A program made the translations under genes and the position numbers. From Thiotrichaceae bacterium (lineage in GTDB: Bacteria; Pseudomonadota; Gammaproteobacteria; Beggiatoales; Beggiatoaceae): a stretch of 64,000 bases of DNA. Shown piece after piece: positions 13,976 through 32,091 of the stretch. The notes under the pieces were generated by a model. The model saw nothing but the letters and a program-made list of their open reading frames with translations, had not been told where the DNA came from and made no database searches. Each line of letters starts with the position of its first letter. The stretch's first letter is position 1. The stretch covers positions 489-64,488 of the forward strand of contig JADGDF010000005.1 of NCBI GenBank assembly GCA_016745055.1, given 5' to 3'.

Positions 13976-14050
13976 TAAGTTTTCAATCAGACCTGGCAGG
14001 TTTTTAAAACCTGCCAGGTCTTGTTTCCGATTTTATTTAGTTCCCATTCC
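13976..14050 (-). repeat. About 75-bp dispersed intergenic element (CCTGGCAGG family), copy 2, inverted relative to copy 1
   Basis: Contains the perfect palindrome gacctggcaggttttTaaaacctgccaggtc. Its reverse complement aligns almost base-for-base with 6839-6914. It abuts the gspE stop codon (14050-14052), the same position and orientation relative to the upstream gene as copy 1. Confidence 0.8.
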
Positions 14051-15534
14051 TAAATACTCCGGGTGACACGCAAAATTTCTTCAGGCGTTGTCATACCTGA
14101 TTTTAGCTTTTCTAATGCATTTGAACGTAAAGTTTGCATGCCTTCTTTAACGGCTTCAGCACGAATTGCGTTAGCGTCTCCGCCTGCACTGATCACATGA
14201 CGAAGATTATCAGAAATAAGTAGTAGTTCATATAATCCAACTCGTCCGCGGTAACCTGTGTTAGCACAACGTTCACAGCCTTTGCCACGCATGGTAGTAG
14301 GATAATCACGTAGATTAACACCTAAAGCATCCGCTTCTTCTGGTGTGAGCGGGTGTTCTTGATGACAATGAGAGCATACTTTACGCACTAAACGTTGCGC
14401 CATTGTGGCAATGACACTGGAACTGATTAAGTAAGTATCAATCCCCATATCTTGCAAACGGGTAATTGCCCCTGCAGCATCGTTAGTATGCAAAGTTGAA
14501 AAAACTAAGTGGCCCGTGAGTGCTGATTCAATCGCAATTTCTGCCGTTTCGTGATCACGAATTTCACCAATCATGATAATGTCAGGATCTTGCCGCACGA
14601 TGGAGCGTAAACCTGCAGAAAAAGTTAGTCCTATTTTGGCGTTGACGTGAATTTGGGTGATACCTTCTAGTTGGTATTCAACCGGGTCTTCAACGGTAAT
14701 AATTTTTTGAACACCCGTATTGATTTTTTCCAAAGTCCCATATAAAGTTGTTGTTTTACCACTCCCTGTTGGACCTGTGACGAGTACCATGCCATGGGGC
14801 TGTTGAATCATTTTAGCATAAGGTTTAAGAATTTCTTTTGGCATCCCCAGTTGATCTAAGCTAACACTCACATCACTACGATCTAAAATACGTAATACAA
14901 TGGATTCACCATGCACGCCTGGCAAAGTGGATACCCGCATATCTAAAACACGTTCTCCCATGGTGTATTGAATACGACCATCTTGTGGTAAACGTTTTTC
15001 ACCAATATCTAAACGGGCCATCAATTTAACTCTGGAAGAAATAGAGGGCTGAACAGAAGCAGGTAATTTTTCAATATGAACCATTACACCATCGACACGA
15101 CAGCGTACCATTAAATGTTTTTCTTCTGGTTCAAAGTGAATATCACTAGCACTTAAATCCAATGCCCGCTCCATTAAGTGATTTACCATACGAATCACTG
15201 GAGCATCAGAGGCTAAATCTTTTAAATAATCGCTGTCAGTATCATCACCGAGTGCCTCAGTACCTTCCATTTCAGGAGATAGTTTTGCCCGCCAATGCTT
15301 AATCAAACGTTCAATTTGATCTTCTTTTGCCTTTTCAAAGCGAACGTGCGAACCTAATAAAAATCTTACTTTAGCGCGATCTTCAATCTCAGGTAATTCA
15401 GCAAATAGTAAACGAGGATCGTCGGGGAATTGTTCTACGGGCGCAATATTTTTTTTTGCCAGTAATTGGGTAAATGTCTGTAAGTGAATACTTGCCATCT
15501 TGTATCCATCCCTATCATTAATGAAACTTGTCAA
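14050..15534 (-). CDS. gspE: GspE/PulE-family secretion ATPase (type II secretion / type IV pilus-type)
   Basis: 494-aa ORF. Walker A GPTGSGKTT, Walker B DIIMIGEIRD, His box, tetracysteine CSHC...CERC...GYRGRVGLYE. The track start is a TTG. An ATG at 15498 (MASIHLQ...) is an alternative. Confidence 0.85.
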   Translation of the reverse strand: MTSFINDRDGYKMASIHLQTFTQLLAKKNIAPVEQFPDDPRLLFAELPEIEDRAKVRFLLGSHVRFEKAKEDQIERLIKHWRAKLSPEMEGTEALGDDTDSDYLKDLASDAPVIRMVNHLMERALDLSASDIHFEPEEKHLMVRCRVDGVMVHIEKLPASVQPSISSRVKLMARLDIGEKRLPQDGRIQYTMGERVLDMRVSTLPGVHGESIVLRILDRSDVSVSLDQLGMPKEILKPYAKMIQQPHGMVLVTGPTGSGKTTTLYGTLEKINTGVQKIITVEDPVEYQLEGITQIHVNAKIGLTFSAGLRSIVRQDPDIIMIGEIRDHETAEIAIESALTGHLVFSTLHTNDAAGAITRLQDMGIDTYLISSSVIATMAQRLVRKVCSHCHQEHPLTPEEADALGVNLRDYPTTMRGKGCERCANTGYRGRVGLYELLLISDNLRHVISAGGDANAIRAEAVKEGMQTLRSNALEKLKSGMTTPEEILRVTRSI

Positions 15535-25449: not shown

Positions 25450-25974
25450 ATGTTTAATTGGTTTAGAAAGAAATTACCTGAACCAGAGTCCAAAATTGTA
25501 AATCCGCGCATACCTAAAGCCTTGCCGAAAAAAACTTCAAAGTTAGTTGGAAATGTTAAATATAATTCTAAGCTGGTGGGACAACTCACCAGTGACATGA
25601 AAAAAATTATGGAAGGTTACGCAGAAATATTACATATATTAAGCAATAAAGATTTTTCTCAAATACCTCAAAGGCTTAGGCAATTTACAGCTGATTTAAA
25701 AGCCCATATATTTAGAGAAGAAATAGAGCTTTACTCTTACTTAGAAAAAATCTTTGCGTCTGATGAACAAACATTAGAAAATATTAATAAAATTAAACAA
25801 GAAGTTGATGATATTGTCGAACAAATAGTTAATTTTATGAACCATTATGAAGAACTAGACTCAGATAAATCTTATATATTTAAAGCAGAATTTGAAGCAG
25901 TGGGAGAGATTTTAAATACTCGGTTTAGCAGAAAAGAAGAAATTTTATATACAATGTACACTTTATATAAATAA
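25450..25974 (+). CDS. Hypothetical protein (weak hemerythrin-like helix pattern)
   Basis: 174-aa [23 protein letters not shown] loosely recalls hemerythrin/HHE cation-binding helices. Not secure. Confidence 0.35.
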
Positions 25975-27152: not shown

Positions 27153-27160
27153 TTAGTTAG

Positions 27161-27194
27161 TAGGATGTGTTGAACAATGTGAAACACATCTACA
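27161..27194. repeat. Hairpin repeat, family TAGGRTGYGTT...CACMYCTACA, copy 2 (terminator-like position)
   Basis: taggatgtgttgaacaatgtgaaacacatctaca, stem GATGTGTT/AACACATC, 9 nt after the leuB stop. Aligns with 3631-3663. Confidence 0.6.
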
Positions 27195-27219
27195 ATCAAT
27201 TGACATGTTCAACAAGTTA

Positions 27220-27276
27220 GACTGGGTTTATAATCCTGCTGGCAACGTTTGGAAGCAAGTTACAAACCTGCTTCCG
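27220..27276 (-). repeat. About 55-nt structured intergenic repeat (GCAGGTTTGTAAC family), copy 2, inverted
   Basis: The reverse complement cggaagcaggtttgtaacttgcttccaaacgttgccagcaggattataaaccc aligns with copies at 222-274 and 35846-35899. Contains stem GGAAGCA/TGCTTCC. Confidence 0.7.
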
Positions 27277-27367
27277 CTAACTCCACTTTTGGCGCAGGAA
27301 TAATCATTAAATGTTCTAAATAAAATTCTAAATCATAGATAATGATAGCCAAATTATCTAATTTTGC

Positions 27368-27652
27368 TTGCGCCATGAGCATATAAGTTTGGTCGAACAA
27401 AGTAGCATCTTGCTAGGAAAAGTTGATAAACGTATTGAACCTCAAGGGGATCAGGCTGTGAAAATAACCATTGATAAAGCTAGTTTTACTCAATTGATGA
27501 AATGGTTAAGACAGTTATACAATCAGCAGGAGGTTGATGTACGTCAAATTCATATCGAAAAACAAAAAGAGCCGGGCATTATCAGTGTTCGCCATTTGAC
27601 TATGACAGTCCTAAATACACTCCAAAATCATACTGCATTCTATATTCTCTAA
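27368..27652 (+). pseudogene. GspM-like (type II secretion protein M) C-terminal fragment
   Basis: 94-aa ORF, TTG start immediately after an in-frame TAA. EPQGDQAVKITIDKASFTQLMKWLRQLYNQQEVDVRQIHIEKQKEPGIISVRHL resembles the GspM periplasmic domain pattern (Q/EP.G...V.V.L..V.F..L..WL..L......V..L.I.R....G.V.V..L). The N-terminal TM part is missing. Confidence 0.45.
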
Positions 27653-27716: not shown

Positions 27717-29072
27717 TTAAATAAGTTGCTTAATCTCATGAGCCAAATCATTATCTCTATCCCTGTAATCAATACTCCCAGCCAAATGTTTTTCTCGTGT
27801 TACCATTTTTCTAATAATGCTCTGCCGACCGTCTAAAATAGCTGGGCTTTTATATTCTTGCCCCTTGTATTTTGGTTGACATTCCTTCCATACAGGGCCA
27901 ATTGTCTCCTCAATTATCTCTATCCTTAATTCTGGGGATAGTTTCTGAATTTTTTCAAATTGATGAGAGCTTTCTTTCTCCACGTCTTTCGGAGATTTAG
28001 GAATTCTTACATTTTCAGCAATATTCAAGTAAATTAGATTTTTTCCTTTGTGAATATTTGTTACCTCTATCCAAAAATCACCTTTCTGAGACTGATATAA
28101 AGGTTTAGTAAATTCTTTTTTAATTTCAATAATAACAGTTAAAACTGCTTGTTCAGTTATATCATAGGGTTTTGAAGTAATAAAAATAGGAAGTAACTTT
28201 TGTTCATTTTCATTTTCTTTACATATAATATAGCTTGAAACTTCGTAACGCTTGTTATCTTTTTTGCCATGATAAGTAGTTACAAAAAAATTCGAGTCTT
28301 TATCAATAGGAATATCTTGATCAACATTACGTATTTCAGCTTCATAACAAATAGTTTTAGCATTTTTATCTAAAGCCCTAACCAAAATTGTTTTTGATGG
28401 TGAAAATTTGTTTGAGATATCTTTACCGAAAATTACGATAAGGACATAATCATCTTTTTGTTTAATGCTTATATCACTTATATCGTTACATATAACATCG
28501 TAATTCTTTTCTTGAAAGTCAAAACTTTTTTGCAATTTCTTATAGAAATCTATAAAGTTAAGGTTAAACTTTCCACCTATCTTCGTATAAAGCTTTGTCC
28601 CTATATCTTCACAAAAAACCTTTATAGCATTAAGATATAAAAGGACTTCCCTGTATAAGTCTGAATTTTTTTGAGTGGTAATAATACTAGTTGCTTCTAT
28701 ATTTTTACCTCCTAAAGCATTATGCGTAAAATTTTGACTCCCTACCCAAATTTCTACTTGGTTATGTTCAAGCTCAAACACGATAAATTTTGAATGCATC
28801 AAAGGAAATCTTCCTGTTCCTTGTCTATAAAGAAACAGATAAATGTTTGCTCCTTTTTCTACAAAACTACTTAATGAATCAATATCTGTTGGTTGGTGTA
28901 TATCAACACAAAAATAAGAATCTTCATGAGCTAACTTTTCTGTCAATTCAGCAAAATAGCTTTTATCTATACTCCAAAATGCAACGGCTCCTTTTACAGA
29001 AATACATTTTGTTATAGATGTTTGCAGTCTATTTTTGATATTTCTATTTTCTTTAGATTGTAAAAATTCCAT
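27717..29072 (-). CDS. Phospholipase D-family (single HKD) nuclease-like protein with an uncharacterised C-terminal region
   Basis: 451-aa ORF. LMHSKFIVFELEHNQVEIWVGSQNFTHNAL = HxK(x)4[D/E]...GSxN within the first ~165 aa. The remainder is K/E/I-rich without recognisable motifs. Markedly AT-richer than its neighbours. Confidence 0.7.
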   Translation of the reverse strand: MEFLQSKENRNIKNRLQTSITKCISVKGAVAFWSIDKSYFAELTEKLAHEDSYFCVDIHQPTDIDSLSSFVEKGANIYLFLYRQGTGRFPLMHSKFIVFELEHNQVEIWVGSQNFTHNALGGKNIEATSIITTQKNSDLYREVLLYLNAIKVFCEDIGTKLYTKIGGKFNLNFIDFYKKLQKSFDFQEKNYDVICNDISDISIKQKDDYVLIVIFGKDISNKFSPSKTILVRALDKNAKTICYEAEIRNVDQDIPIDKDSNFFVTTYHGKKDNKRYEVSSYIICKENENEQKLLPIFITSKPYDITEQAVLTVIIEIKKEFTKPLYQSQKGDFWIEVTNIHKGKNLIYLNIAENVRIPKSPKDVEKESSHQFEKIQKLSPELRIEIIEETIGPVWKECQPKYKGQEYKSPAILDGRQSIIRKMVTREKHLAGSIDYRDRDNDLAHEIKQLI

Positions 29073-29107: not shown

Positions 29108-29130
29108 GTGACTACGCACTGCGTAGTCAC
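29108..29130. other. Perfect 11-bp-arm palindrome between the cbbO-like stop and the PLD-like start
   Basis: gtgactacgca-c-tgcgtagtcac. No adjacent U-tract on either strand. Confidence 0.6.
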
Positions 29131-29145
29131 ACCAATTTTTAAAAA

Positions 29146-31413
29146 CTATCCCGTCAAACTAATAAACAATTTTGGTAATTGTGCTGGCAACCTCTCAACT
29201 CTGTCAATCACCAAATATTGATTACCAAAAATCTGACTGACATATTCATCTGCTTTAGCATCTAGGTTAATGCAATAAGTGAAAATGCCTTTTTGATCTG
29301 CTTCTTGAACCGCTTTGTGAGCATCTTTAATCAATAATTTTTCATCTTGAACGTCAATATCTGATGGCTCACCATCGGTTAAAACGAGCAATAACTTTTT
29401 ATCGGCTTGACGTGCTGATAAATAGTGGGTGGCATGACGCAATGCTGCACCCATGCGGGTGGAGTAACCCGCTTGCATTGAAGCTAAACGTCCTTTGACA
29501 CTATCATCCCATTTTTCGGTATAGCCTTTAATATGTTGATAACGTACTTCATGGCGAGTATTGGAAGAGAAACCTGCAATGGCAAACTCATCTCCCAAAC
29601 GATCAACCGCCCAACCCAACAAGGCTACTGCTTCTTGACTAAGTTCCAAAATCGTTTGTTCACATCCTTCAGGAATACTAGCTACCGATTCGGATAAATC
29701 CAATAATAACATGACGGCAATATTACGCCCGTCATGACGATGGCTCATATTGATGCGTGGATCAGGATTTGCGCCTCCTTTGAAATCAATCAGGGAACGA
29801 ATTGCCACATCTAAATCCAGTTCACTCCCTTCTTCCTGGTAACGAATACGCACGTAATCTTGTGGCTTGAGCAAATCCAAAATACGTTTTAATCGACGTG
29901 CTGTGGCTTCATGCTTGGATAATAGCAAATCAATTATCATGGCATCACCTGGAGGGTGTAGACTTTCATACAAACTTACCCAATCAGGCCGATAGGTTTT
30001 AGTTTGGTAATCCCATTCTGGATAATGACGTGGCGGAAGTTTGTTGTTATCTTCATCACTGGCAACTTTTTTATTTTCTTGCTCAAAAAAATCTTCATCG
30101 TCACTTTCTTCAATAAATTTCCACATGTGACGATTATCATCGCGGTAAGTGACTTCAGTATCCGCAAAATAGACATTAGCAGCTAAATCTTGCTGACGAC
30201 GAGTACGAGCGATAAAAGAGACAGCTAATTCAGCAACCGCTTTGGTGCTAGCATCACCGGTCTTCATGGTTTTGTGAAAATGTTGCACCGCTTCAAGAAT
30301 ATCCGGATTTTGATAGCCATGATTTTCATTTAATACTGCATAAGACAGCATTGCTAAACGATGTAAAATACAAGATTCTTTTTCTGGATTACATCCATGC
30401 TCATCAGGTGCCGGATGCAAAGCTAACCACAAATGACGTAAGCCGGGGTATTCTTGCATGGCAAGCCATTCAACACGGCTATCTTCAAAAATTTCAATGG
30501 CTACGCGCTGAAAAGGGCTGTAATTATCAGCAATAATGGCTGTTGTCCACCGTTTATGGGCAGCGACATGTGCCAATAAAGCTCGGTATCGATTAATACC
30601 TTTGATCTCTGCGAGATCGTCGTAAACATCAGGTACACGAATACCCAAACTATCGTAATAAGGTACAGGTCGGCGCAATTCGCTAAAGCCTTCAGAATAA
30701 GGCACCAGATGCTCTTTAGATTCCCATAAGGCTCGCAAGTATAAATCTAATTGACGTTCATGGTCTGCGAGTAAAGTGCCATGTCTCTCGCGCTGCAAAA
30801 CTGCCCGACTATCCGCCGATTGCAAACTAAAATAATCTCTTTGCCGATCAGGGTGAGTACTGTAATTACGAATACCATATTCCATCCAATTCTTTAGCCC
30901 TTCTAATGACAATTGATTTAATAAATAAGGACTTTGGTTTAACATTTCTGGTAAACCTGGACTGGGAAAAGTCGCAGATTGATTACCATGAATTGATGTG
31001 CTGGTTTGCTCCATCAAATCAAAAATTAGTTTGATATAATGGAAAAAAGCTTCTGGGGCACCCAATCGCCGTGAGGCTTCAGGTAAACTTTGCATGAACG
31101 GTAAAATCGCTTTACCATTTGGGCTTCGAGACATTTTCCATACAGATTCTGAAACTAAAGACAACGTTATTTCACCCAAACGGTCGGCAATTCCAGGCAT
31201 TTCTTCCAGATAAACTAACACGGGTTCAAAGCCGCGCCCGATTTTACACACAAGTGAAGCGCCGTCCAGATATTCTTCAATGCCTTCGGCCGAAAGCATG
31301 ACTTCAGCTTCTGTCATGCAATCAGCAAACACATCATCAAGTTGTTTGAAGTTGCAGGTCAATTTTTGACGGTAAGTGTCTTCGTTGGAAGGTGTTGTTT
31401 GCGCCAGTGACAT
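29146..31413 (-). CDS. cbbO: CbbO/NorD-family von Willebrand factor A protein (Rubisco-activase CbbQO adaptor-like)
   Basis: 755-aa ORF. The long N-terminal region is typical of CbbO in size. C-terminal VWA domain with MIDAS LLLDLSES and LLLVLTDGEPSD. No MoxR/CbbQ ATPase gene adjacent. Confidence 0.7.
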   Translation of the reverse strand: MSLAQTTPSNEDTYRQKLTCNFKQLDDVFADCMTEAEVMLSAEGIEEYLDGASLVCKIGRGFEPVLVYLEEMPGIADRLGEITLSLVSESVWKMSRSPNGKAILPFMQSLPEASRRLGAPEAFFHYIKLIFDLMEQTSTSIHGNQSATFPSPGLPEMLNQSPYLLNQLSLEGLKNWMEYGIRNYSTHPDRQRDYFSLQSADSRAVLQRERHGTLLADHERQLDLYLRALWESKEHLVPYSEGFSELRRPVPYYDSLGIRVPDVYDDLAEIKGINRYRALLAHVAAHKRWTTAIIADNYSPFQRVAIEIFEDSRVEWLAMQEYPGLRHLWLALHPAPDEHGCNPEKESCILHRLAMLSYAVLNENHGYQNPDILEAVQHFHKTMKTGDASTKAVAELAVSFIARTRRQQDLAANVYFADTEVTYRDDNRHMWKFIEESDDEDFFEQENKKVASDEDNNKLPPRHYPEWDYQTKTYRPDWVSLYESLHPPGDAMIIDLLLSKHEATARRLKRILDLLKPQDYVRIRYQEEGSELDLDVAIRSLIDFKGGANPDPRINMSHRHDGRNIAVMLLLDLSESVASIPEGCEQTILELSQEAVALLGWAVDRLGDEFAIAGFSSNTRHEVRYQHIKGYTEKWDDSVKGRLASMQAGYSTRMGAALRHATHYLSARQADKKLLLVLTDGEPSDIDVQDEKLLIKDAHKAVQEADQKGIFTYCINLDAKADEYVSQIFGNQYLVIDRVERLPAQLPKLFISLTG

Positions 31414-32091
31414 GAGGCATCCTTAGCAGATTAAGTGGTTGTTTATATAGTGTTCTTTTTAATATGTAACTAAATGTTGAGGTGTAATTTAAAATTTTTT
31501 AGCATTTAAATGATTTAATTACCACTCATATAGCCCATGAATCAATTAGTTTTGTAACTGAATATTCAAATTTAATTGCTTGCATAATTATTTCTTAAAC
31601 TAATGAAAAATAAAAATTTTTCTTGTCATTTAGAATAGAATTATTTATTTCTTGTGGTTTTTAGCATTAGGAAAGTAATCTGCACAAATATTATTGTACC
31701 TTCAACTTTCAAGCCTGTCTTGGTAATCTTAATTCAGTATACCTCTTACTTTTATACGAAAGCCATCAATATCATTTGCAGTCATATATAGACATTAAAA
31801 ATTTTATATTTAACATAAGTAACCAGACGGTTTTTATCTAACCCATTGTAAAATAAGTTTAATGAGAAAATAGCTTATTTATGATTATTAATATTTATTA
31901 ATATTATATTAAAATAATAATCAAAGTTACATTGACATTTTAATATCCATGTAACTATATTTTTATGTATGGACATACTTCTTATTAACTGAAATCTATT
32001 TTATATCAACTAGTATGTATTTTAGCTAATTGAAACTAATTAAGATAATTTTTATAAGAAAAAAGGTCTAACACAAATACAGGAAATTATT

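Follow-up and report, generated by a model that had tools for sequence, protein, structure and literature searches.

What does a solitary, AT-rich gene for a phospholipase D (PLD)-family nuclease do between leuB and a cbbO-like gene of a Thiotrichaceae bacterium? The gene lies at positions 27717-29072 (minus strand) of a 64,000-nucleotide stretch of this genome, hereafter the window (GenBank assembly GCA_016745055.1, contig JADGDF010000005.1, positions 489 to 64,488 of the forward strand). It is complete in the list of open reading frames (ORFs), with an ATG start and 451 codons followed by a stop codon. A first-pass annotation had read its product as a single-HKD nuclease region of ~165 residues followed by ~285 residues that it could not assign to any domain, and had proposed a modification-dependent enzyme, an otherwise gated single-gene defence protein or a decaying remnant of a restriction-modification (R-M) system. 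Profile searches indicate that the gene is not a one-off and that it belongs to a sizeable, unnamed family with a conserved two-domain architecture. Our best explanation, to which we assign a probability of roughly 0.55, is that the protein is a stand-alone, restriction-like defence nuclease that would cut as a homodimer and whose C-terminal domain (CTD) would select the target or gate the activity.

The nuclease domain and the C-terminal domain

The N-terminal part of the protein matched the Pfam PLDc_2 profile over residues 67-142 (29.6 bits, gathering cut-off 27). The score for the RE_NgoFVII profile was slightly below its cut-off (21.9 versus 23.8 bits) for the window protein, and this profile was matched in 44 of 110 family members. 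The NCBIfam scan of the window protein returned no match, and its only PADLOC match was to ZacB, over 45 residues around the HKD motif (92-137). The window sequence and the alignments contain one such motif per chain, within LMHSKFIVFELEHNQVEIWVGSQNFTHNAL (residues 91-120 of the 451-aa protein, translation checked). It belongs to a catalytic block of residues 91-126 (LMHSK...GSQNFT...GxNxE; 28695-28802, minus strand) in which H93, K95, G111, S112, N114, N124 and E126 are invariant in the alignment of the 110 members. The window protein keeps every residue that is invariant in the family, and it has E100 where most members carry the Asp of the motif. A family-specific motif, CVDIHQPT (residues 55-62; 28887-28910, minus strand), is predicted to form a strand and loop of the PLD fold; across the broad family, conservation is at least 90% for C55, D57, P61 and T62 of its CVDIHxPT consensus.

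The AlphaFold2 model of the full-length protein, built on 19 homologs, has a mean pLDDT (predicted local distance difference test) score of 77 and a predicted TM-score (pTM) of 0.66, and pLDDT values reach ~90 or higher over most of residues 11-80 and 131-170. Foldseek searches of the Protein Data Bank (PDB) with this model retrieved SauUSI (E=3.5e-8), Nuc (1byr), NucT, Zucchini/PLD6 and the R protein of NgoAVII, each over ~150 columns with a probability of 1.0. The TM-score normalised to the target was 0.65 for Nuc and ranged from 0.5 to 0.65 for Nuc, NucT and Zucchini. No significant sequence similarity to solved PLD proteins was detected in the PDB, either by phmmer with the window protein or with the 110-member profile. 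Residues 1-164 (28581-29072, minus strand) are thus modelled as a single-HKD PLD fold of the nuclease branch, in line with the first-pass reading. This branch is preferred over the lipid branch because of the single HKD motif, the nucleases at the top of the fold matches, the RE_NgoFVII matches in the family, its weak matches to the defence PLD nucleases ZacB and DrmC and the lack of transmembrane segments; the NCBIfam ClsB profile was matched in one of the 110 members, with E=0.0076. Neither a transmembrane segment nor a signal-like stretch was detected in the PLD protein, whose maximum 19-residue hydropathy is 1.0, and the best explanation is that it is soluble and cytoplasmic. By analogy with Nuc and BfiI, a homodimer would be needed to form one active site: two monomers would pair their HKD halves, each chain contributing H93, K95 and N114, and this composite, metal-independent site would cut phosphodiester bonds through a phospho-histidine intermediate.

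The two domains are bridged by a linker, FYKKLQ (residues 176-181; 28530-28547, minus strand), which is helical in the AlphaFold2 models. Its Y177 is invariant among 35 diverse CTD sequences; in the broad alignments, conservation of both Y177 and Q181 reaches at least 90%. The linker can also be aligned weakly with the segment that follows the PLD domain in a SauUSI-like protein. The linker is followed by a beta-rich domain (residues 183-360; 27993-28526, minus strand) that includes W334 (28071-28073) and an IPKSP motif, and then by a helical segment (residues ~361-397) and a low-confidence basic tail (residues 401-451, pI 9.5), which together occupy positions 27720-27992 (minus strand). A short strand of the tail is conserved, as SIIRK in the window protein and as a basic, LVxRK-like sequence in distant members. 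The C-terminal region is rich in Lys (13%), Ile (14%) and Glu (8.5%), as had been noted. The motifs in the alignment of the 35 CTD sequences are, in order, the YKxLQ helix, VIELEG, ItiFG, vyl.v.D, Y.a.i.q.G, F..RRyAf, P.L, yFvti, the near-invariant W334, I..P and the basic terminal strand; F..RRyAf is replaced by a longer insert in the clade of the window protein. The AlphaFold2 model of residues 165-400 alone (pLDDT 76.7, pTM 0.73) is mainly composed of beta strands, ~10 in number, followed by helices.

The CTD proved as unrecognisable as the first-pass annotation had found it. It has no match in Pfam (110 members), NCBIfam, PADLOC, PHROGs or the PDB sequence profiles. A Foldseek search of the PDB with the CTD model yielded no significant match, the best one being a sortase with E=0.078 and a TM-score of ~0.3. 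A YTH domain came at rank 41 with E=2, and no B3, SRA, PUA-like, BfiI, NgoAVII or EcoRII structure was present among the 50 matches listed. No HhH-GPD, EndoIII or OGG domain was matched by Pfam in the 110 members, nor was such a fold among the PDB matches of the CTD. The alignments of the CTD profile by hhalign with a DUF3427-bearing protein (probability 0.1%) and with an EVE protein were also negative, this being a weak test with single-sequence templates from the retrieved loci. We therefore rejected B3, SRA, YTH, EVE, DUF3427, winged helix-turn-helix and EndoIII identities for the CTD, which are unsupported by Pfam, Foldseek, the PDB profiles and hhalign. The pI of the CTD is 6.4 (family median 6.6), which is about neutral.

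A hidden Markov model built from residues 165-451 and applied iteratively to the retrieved sequences joined 133 of 136 C-terminal regions of the family. Thus, the CTD represents one module co-inherited with the PLD domain rather than a swappable cassette. A word-indexed search with the CTD alone recovered four sequences, all of them known family members. In all 5,995 pairs, identity is higher between the N-terminal domains than between the CTDs, with means of 36% and 17%, respectively. The CTD diverges at about twice the rate of the nuclease domain.

Distribution and genetic environments of the family

An exhaustive profile search collected 480 representatives of 50%-identity clusters at E<=1e-3, 146 of them at E<=1e-30, and most family members are 380-470 residues long. 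The word-indexed search with the window protein identified 18 homologs, to which it aligns over its full length. Among the named homologs, the best one comes from Candidatus Parabeggiatoa sp. HSG14, where it is labelled a hypothetical protein; because this nearest homolog is 48% identical, synonymous sites are saturated. The members are labelled at source only as 'hypothetical protein', 'phospholipase D family protein' or 'HKD family nuclease'. Their occurrence is patchy, in Gammaproteobacteria, Acidobacteria, Bacteroidota and Cyanobacteria, and named hosts include Pontibacter, Anabaena/Dolichospermum, Thioploca and three metagenome-assembled genomes (MAGs) of Acidobacteria. Close relatives of the window protein were found only in Thiotrichaceae (Parabeggiatoa, Thioploca) and metagenomes, and scanning genome contigs with the close-clade alignment yielded five loci. 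No family member was detected in IMG/VR (by a motif scan), PHROGs, 72,556 plasmids or 50,697 phage genomes. Among the 110 members, the PADLOC and NCBIfam profiles gave weak matches to ZacB in 109 and to DrmC in ~24, ZacB being the sole PADLOC entry matched consistently.

We clustered the ORFs surrounding 16 family loci, ten of which belong to distant members. No neighbouring gene family is common to more than three of the 16 loci, and the one present in three codes for an HsdM-like methylase (N6-methyltransferase). Thus, the PLD genes have no obligatory partner. Restriction, defence or mobile-element genes are present in nine of the ten distant-member neighbourhoods; the tenth, on a contig of 4 kb, has small genes of unknown function.

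Several of these nine loci contain R-M genes. In one, the PLD gene follows an hsdM-hsdS-PDDEXK_3-hsdR-YgjP series and precedes PDDEXK_4 and WYL genes. In Pontibacter, it comes after hsdM, hsdS, SEFIR/TIR and PDDEXK_4 genes and before AAA_25, insertion sequence and integrase genes. A gene for a 794-aa HsdM-like protein is found near the PLD gene of another locus. Genes for PDDEXK_4 proteins are located at most two genes from the PLD homolog in two unrelated loci (L008, 10216-11388, and L018, 7451-8464); they were not clustered together by BLAST and may be a coincidence within defence islands. Type IV restriction genes occur as well, with one PLD gene flanked by Mrr_cat and GmrSD genes and another close to a ParB-methyltransferase gene and a GmrSD fragment (GmrSD_N). 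A further PLD gene is preceded by genes coding for a giant EVE protein and for an M78-UvrD-PDDEXK_1 protein.

The neighbourhood of the PLD gene in an Acidobacteria MAG codes for a HIT-PLD-helicase-DUF3427 protein and for an HNH_2 protein. The former (locus L015, 2140-5697) has 1185 residues with HIT, PLD, ResIII/helicase and DUF3427 domains and looks SauUSI-like, with a HIT (nucleotide hydrolase/transferase) domain that is unusual at its N-terminus; its gene is adjoined by HNH_2 and Exo_endo_phos genes. In Anabaena sp. UHCC 0187 (L019, 6173-12013), a PhdYeFM-PIN pair and an AAA_15 ATPase gene precede the PLD gene, which is followed directly by a gene for an XisA/XisC-type recombinase beside nif genes. 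The defence genes of this locus may ride on a heterocyst excision element.

In the ninth locus (L010, 4665-9176), dynamin, DUF1156 methylase and HEPN-DUF499 genes are followed after a 4-nt gap by the PLD gene, where the contig ends. By the definition given in PMC12839542, these genes make up a type-1 BREX-related (BR) system. Some members of the family may serve as built-in effectors of a BREX-related system.

The PLD genes of the close clade each stand alone, and the housekeeping site that they occupy varies from genome to genome. They are found between rpoD and nifS, between an ABC-F gene and a series comprising a GT9 glycosyltransferase gene, uppS, cdsA and dxr, or between DUF2442 and pRha genes. 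The second of these, two genes from cdsA, is the only lipid-metabolism context among the 16 loci. This small survey of neighbourhoods suggests a defence-island setting for the distant members, with the close clade outside such islands. In 11 of 11 loci, the GC content of the PLD gene is 3-12 points below that of its flanks. In Candidatus Parabeggiatoa sp. HSG14 (L001, 9299-10673), a gene for a ParA/CbiA-like ATPase starts 19 nt after the stop codon of the PLD homolog, together with an overlapping gene for a 148-aa NucS_C protein. The three genes could form a module, seen in this genome only.

The site of the gene in the window

As the first-pass annotation had claimed, the PLD gene is AT-richer than its neighbours, with a GC content of 0.296 versus 0.423 for leuB and 0.416 for the cbbO-like gene. 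Its GC content and its GC content at third codon positions (0.208) are each the second lowest among the 44 long ORFs of the window, whose mean GC content is 0.375 with a standard deviation of 0.036. At ~2.2 standard deviations below the mean, the value is a genuine tail value and is not extreme. The lowest GC content among the 44 ORFs (0.288) belongs to a 174-codon gene for an Rsd/AlgQ-like or hemerythrin-like protein located directly after minE (25450-25974, plus strand), which represents a second compositional outlier near the PLD gene. The genes within ~10 kb of the PLD gene are minCDE, the Rsd/hemerythrin-like gene, leuB, the VWA/cbbO-like gene, an unknown ORF, GNAT and HD genes, hemC and the RNase G gene. 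No methyltransferase or helicase gene was found within this distance by Pfam analysis of the window proteins and inspection of the neighbours. The gene is thus as solitary as had been described.

On the 3' side of the PLD gene, the gspM-like fragment noticed earlier is a genuine remnant (27368-27652, plus strand). It codes only for the C-terminal ~75 residues, matching positions 99-156 of the 160-position T2SSM profile and aligning to the final ~75 residues of Parabeggiatoa GspM, which is intact and 164 aa long; no frame holds a counterpart of the N-terminal part. The alignments indicate that this remnant marks a rearrangement. Between leuB and the remnant, a 215-bp stretch (27153-27367) with no detectable coding potential may be a scar of the event that truncated gspM. 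A gspE-like gene is located 12 kb away (14050-15534), and its product is 43% identical to GspE of Parabeggiatoa.

The cbbO-like VWA gene is on the other side (29146-31413, minus strand). We collected 80 metagenomic loci with cbbO orthologs (62-83% identity); they share no other neighbour with the window, and no empty site can be defined from them. In 17 of the 26 long metagenomic loci, cbbO is preceded by a CbbQ-like gene (~270 codons) and a gene of ~460 codons, probably coding for RuBisCO. Neither is present in the 64-kb window, where cbbO is orphaned. Upstream of cbbO, at the usual place of cbbQ, there is a 680-bp gap (31414-32091) with 22-27% GC and no ORF of at least 50 codons. With the gspM remnant on one side and the orphan cbbO on the other, the PLD gene is therefore within a segment that was rearranged on both sides.

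The description of the gene as part of an AT-rich insert holds in part: the site is rearranged and deviates in composition, and no discrete insertion event can be demonstrated. We rejected a discrete mobile element, as the 16-nt direct repeats flanking the gene (27231 and 29176, 14 of 16 bases identical) are at chance level for 2.3 kb of AT-rich DNA, and neither a tRNA gene nor an integrase gene is present. The PLD gene may have resided in the lineage for a long time. Identity to the Parabeggiatoa copies is 48% for the PLD protein and ~43% for the shared type II secretion system (T2SS) proteins, and gspM is at most 8 kb from the PLD gene in both genomes.

A perfect 23-bp palindrome (11+1+11; 29108-29130) was found in the scan of the window between the stop codon of cbbO, 16 nt away, and the start codon of the PLD gene, 36 nt away. 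It is unique in the window, where none is expected by chance, and it scores as a terminator on the plus strand only. Its perfection and 11-bp arms were as described earlier; the proposed role as a boundary was not upheld. No counterpart was found upstream of 15 homologs, and we accordingly discarded an operator, a family feature and a boundary as explanations. One close relative has an unrelated hairpin with 17-bp arms at the equivalent position, after rpoD (L002). Most likely, the palindrome forms a hairpin at the 3' end of cbbO and does not belong to the PLD family. A candidate sigma-70-type promoter, TTGACA-N18-CACAAT (29178-29207, minus strand; 10 of 12 consensus positions), is located 106 nt upstream of the ATG codon, within the 3' end of cbbO. 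The consensus scan of the region found 13 promoter-like sites for 11.3 expected, which is not above chance.

Possible functions of the family

The association in one chain of an N-terminal PLD nuclease with a C-terminal specificity or sensor domain is already established for BfiI/NgoAVII, SauUSI and the END nucleases. The window protein shares this general logic and misses defining features of each of the families to which we compared it. BfiI and NgoAVII (NgoFVII) have the same two-domain design with an N-terminal single-HKD PLD domain that must dimerize. However, their specificity domain is a B3-like pseudobarrel, and the match to the NgoAVII R structure (4rct_A) ends at the PLD domain, after 152 columns. 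Furthermore, they have a cognate methyltransferase, unlike the window locus, and none is recurrent in the family. The BfiI precedent invoked in the first-pass annotation thus applies to the layout of the protein and not to its CTD, which has no B3/pseudobarrel, SRA, YTH, EVE or DUF3427 similarity.

SauUSI, an ATP-dependent type IV enzyme that depends on 5-methylcytosine or 5-hydroxymethylcytosine, gives the strongest structural match to the PLD domain, similarly has no cognate methylase and has a relative in the same island as one family member. Nevertheless, the superfamily 2 helicase motor and the DUF3427 domain of SauUSI were not found by Pfam in the window protein, which is less than half its size. 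The recently described END nucleases are encoded by single genes that DefenseFinder and PADLOC overlook; their sensor is an inactivated EndoIII domain, and they restrict phages whose DNA is hypermodified (PMC12191111). The authors of that study explicitly speak of a larger group of PLD nucleases that differ in their C-terminal sensors (PMC12191111). The likeness to END nucleases (for example END-PaCF1) extends to a single gene with no methylase that escapes defence-finding tools, an N-terminal single-HKD nuclease that is a fold-level relative of SauUSI and BfiI, a CTD proposed to sense the substrate and, for the distant members, a location in defence islands. The CTD of END nucleases is a helical, inactivated EndoIII/Ogg1 (HhH) domain, whereas that of the window protein is beta-rich; this separation relies on the published descriptions of END nucleases.

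Nuc, NucT and Zucchini share the single-HKD fold and, as we presume by analogy, the metal-independent chemistry. However, they are single-domain proteins of ~150-200 residues that are secreted or membrane-anchored, whereas the window protein has an additional region of ~285 residues and neither a signal nor a transmembrane segment. Finally, HKD defence nucleases include ZacB, the PLD nuclease of the three-protein Azaca system, DrmC of DISARM and MtsD, the PLD-helicase of MANTIS. The weak family matches to ZacB and DrmC span only ~45 residues around the motif, and these systems require partner ATPases or helicases (ZacA/C, DrmA/B/D, MtsA-C), in contrast with the window locus, where none is found, and with the family, where none is recurrent.

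Based on the genetic context and on the modularity of BfiI, SauUSI and END nucleases, the CTD would determine the choice of target or the moment of cleavage. Most plausibly, it would recognise a feature absent from the DNA of the host, for instance a modified base, in a type IV-like manner. This mode leads because the host must be spared although there is no cognate methylase. Alternatively, the enzyme might be activated by a cue of infection. The defence role suggested in the first-pass annotation remains plausible since distant members adjoin type I R-M, Mrr/GmrSD, SauUSI-like, TIR and DUF499 systems.

Several points weigh against a stand-alone restriction-like nuclease. The nuclease and defence roles are predictions drawn from sequence, structural model and genetic context; homodimeric cutting, nuclease activity, the substrate and the defence role of the solitary window copy are all extrapolated from better-known enzymes and from the genetic context. 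The substrate could be RNA rather than DNA, as Zucchini is among the fold matches. The CTD resembles no known modification reader, and its neutral charge gives no electrostatic sign of nucleic-acid binding. The sample of ten distant loci is small, and the proportion of nine in ten comes without a formal background rate. Furthermore, the close, Thiotrichaceae-type clade, including the window gene, is found among housekeeping genes and not in defence islands, and the PLD gene operonic with the DUF499 system suggests that some members may need partners.

More tentatively, the ~220-residue beta-rich CTD may be an unseen sensor fold for infection or DNA modification. Together with the PLD domain, it might then constitute a new, widespread, single-protein anti-phage system of ~480 clusters, missed by the catalogues because it comes almost entirely from environmental, uncultured lineages. 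We consider this a possibility worth stating rather than an expectation.

Among the other explanations, an infection-triggered effector of the abortive type survives best, although we regard it as unlikely. Its CTD would sense a phage protein or another non-DNA cue, or restrain the nuclease, and the dimeric PLD site, once freed, would degrade nucleic acids indiscriminately. Such an effector would fit a solitary gene with no methylase and a neutral CTD unlike any DNA reader. The fast divergence of the CTD is reminiscent of arms-race sensor domains, the conserved basic strand that follows the disordered linker at the C-terminus could dock back on the protein, and TIR/SEFIR, AAA_15 and toxin-antitoxin modules are among the neighbours. 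Nevertheless, both the trigger and the toxicity are hypothetical, and the neighbours are mainly R-M and type IV restriction genes, a better fit to direct discrimination of DNA. The single-chain PLD defence enzymes BfiI, SauUSI and END are all direct DNA restrictors.

It is less probable still that the family provides an accessory or back-up nuclease to a multi-gene system, either DUF499-centred and BREX-related or type I R-M, of which the window copy would be an orphan of rearrangement that by itself does little or nothing. The PLD gene that starts 4 nt after the HEPN-DUF499 gene of the BR type-1 locus is suggestive in this regard, as are those located directly after hsdR-YgjP or before an HsdM-like gene. 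Auxiliary nucleases near BREX-related systems are documented (PMC12839542), and the window locus is visibly rearranged, with its gspM remnant and orphan cbbO. However, no neighbour family is found in more than three of the 16 loci, most members, including all the close ones, have no such system nearby, and the protein is conserved over its full length where it is solitary.

We find even less in favour of a non-defence cellular nuclease, involved in DNA repair, recombination, RNA processing or nutrient scavenging and inherited vertically in Thiotrichaceae. The housekeeping surroundings of the close clade, the similar identities of the PLD (48%) and T2SS (~43%) proteins to their Parabeggiatoa counterparts, the proximity of gspM in both genomes and the presence of the non-defence nucleases Zucchini and NucT among the fold matches are consistent with it. 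These features are to be set against a site that differs in every genome examined, with no conserved synteny, the patchy spread over four phyla or classes, the GC content below that of the flanks at all 11 loci and the location of distant members in defence islands. Lastly, the adjacent gene remnant and missing methylase, the homolog two genes from cdsA and a weak, motif-only match to a phospholipase of the PDB (E=0.024) make a hardly convincing case for a decaying R-M remnant or a lipid-acting enzyme of the phospholipase or cardiolipin-synthase type, the former being contradicted by the intact ORF with all invariant residues and a two-domain architecture kept over 480 clusters, and the latter opposed by one HKD motif rather than two, the absence of membrane segments and the nuclease fold matches, with a lipid-metabolism context at a single locus.

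Coming back to the stand-alone restriction-like nuclease, the family is a credible candidate for a single-gene defence family with a structurally unassigned, predicted sensor, inside a recognised architectural class. If it is not a defence gene, it would represent one further uncharacterised PLD nuclease. If it is a working single-gene restriction system, the modular toolkit of PLD nuclease plus reader would gain a new sensor domain; this toolkit has already provided useful enzymes, namely BfiI, SauUSI and the END nucleases as detectors of hypermodified DNA, and the new reader could recognise a DNA feature beyond the reach of current detection tools. It would also mean that defence catalogues based on well-studied bacteria overlook whole families in circulation among sulfur bacteria, Acidobacteria, Cyanobacteria and Bacteroidota.

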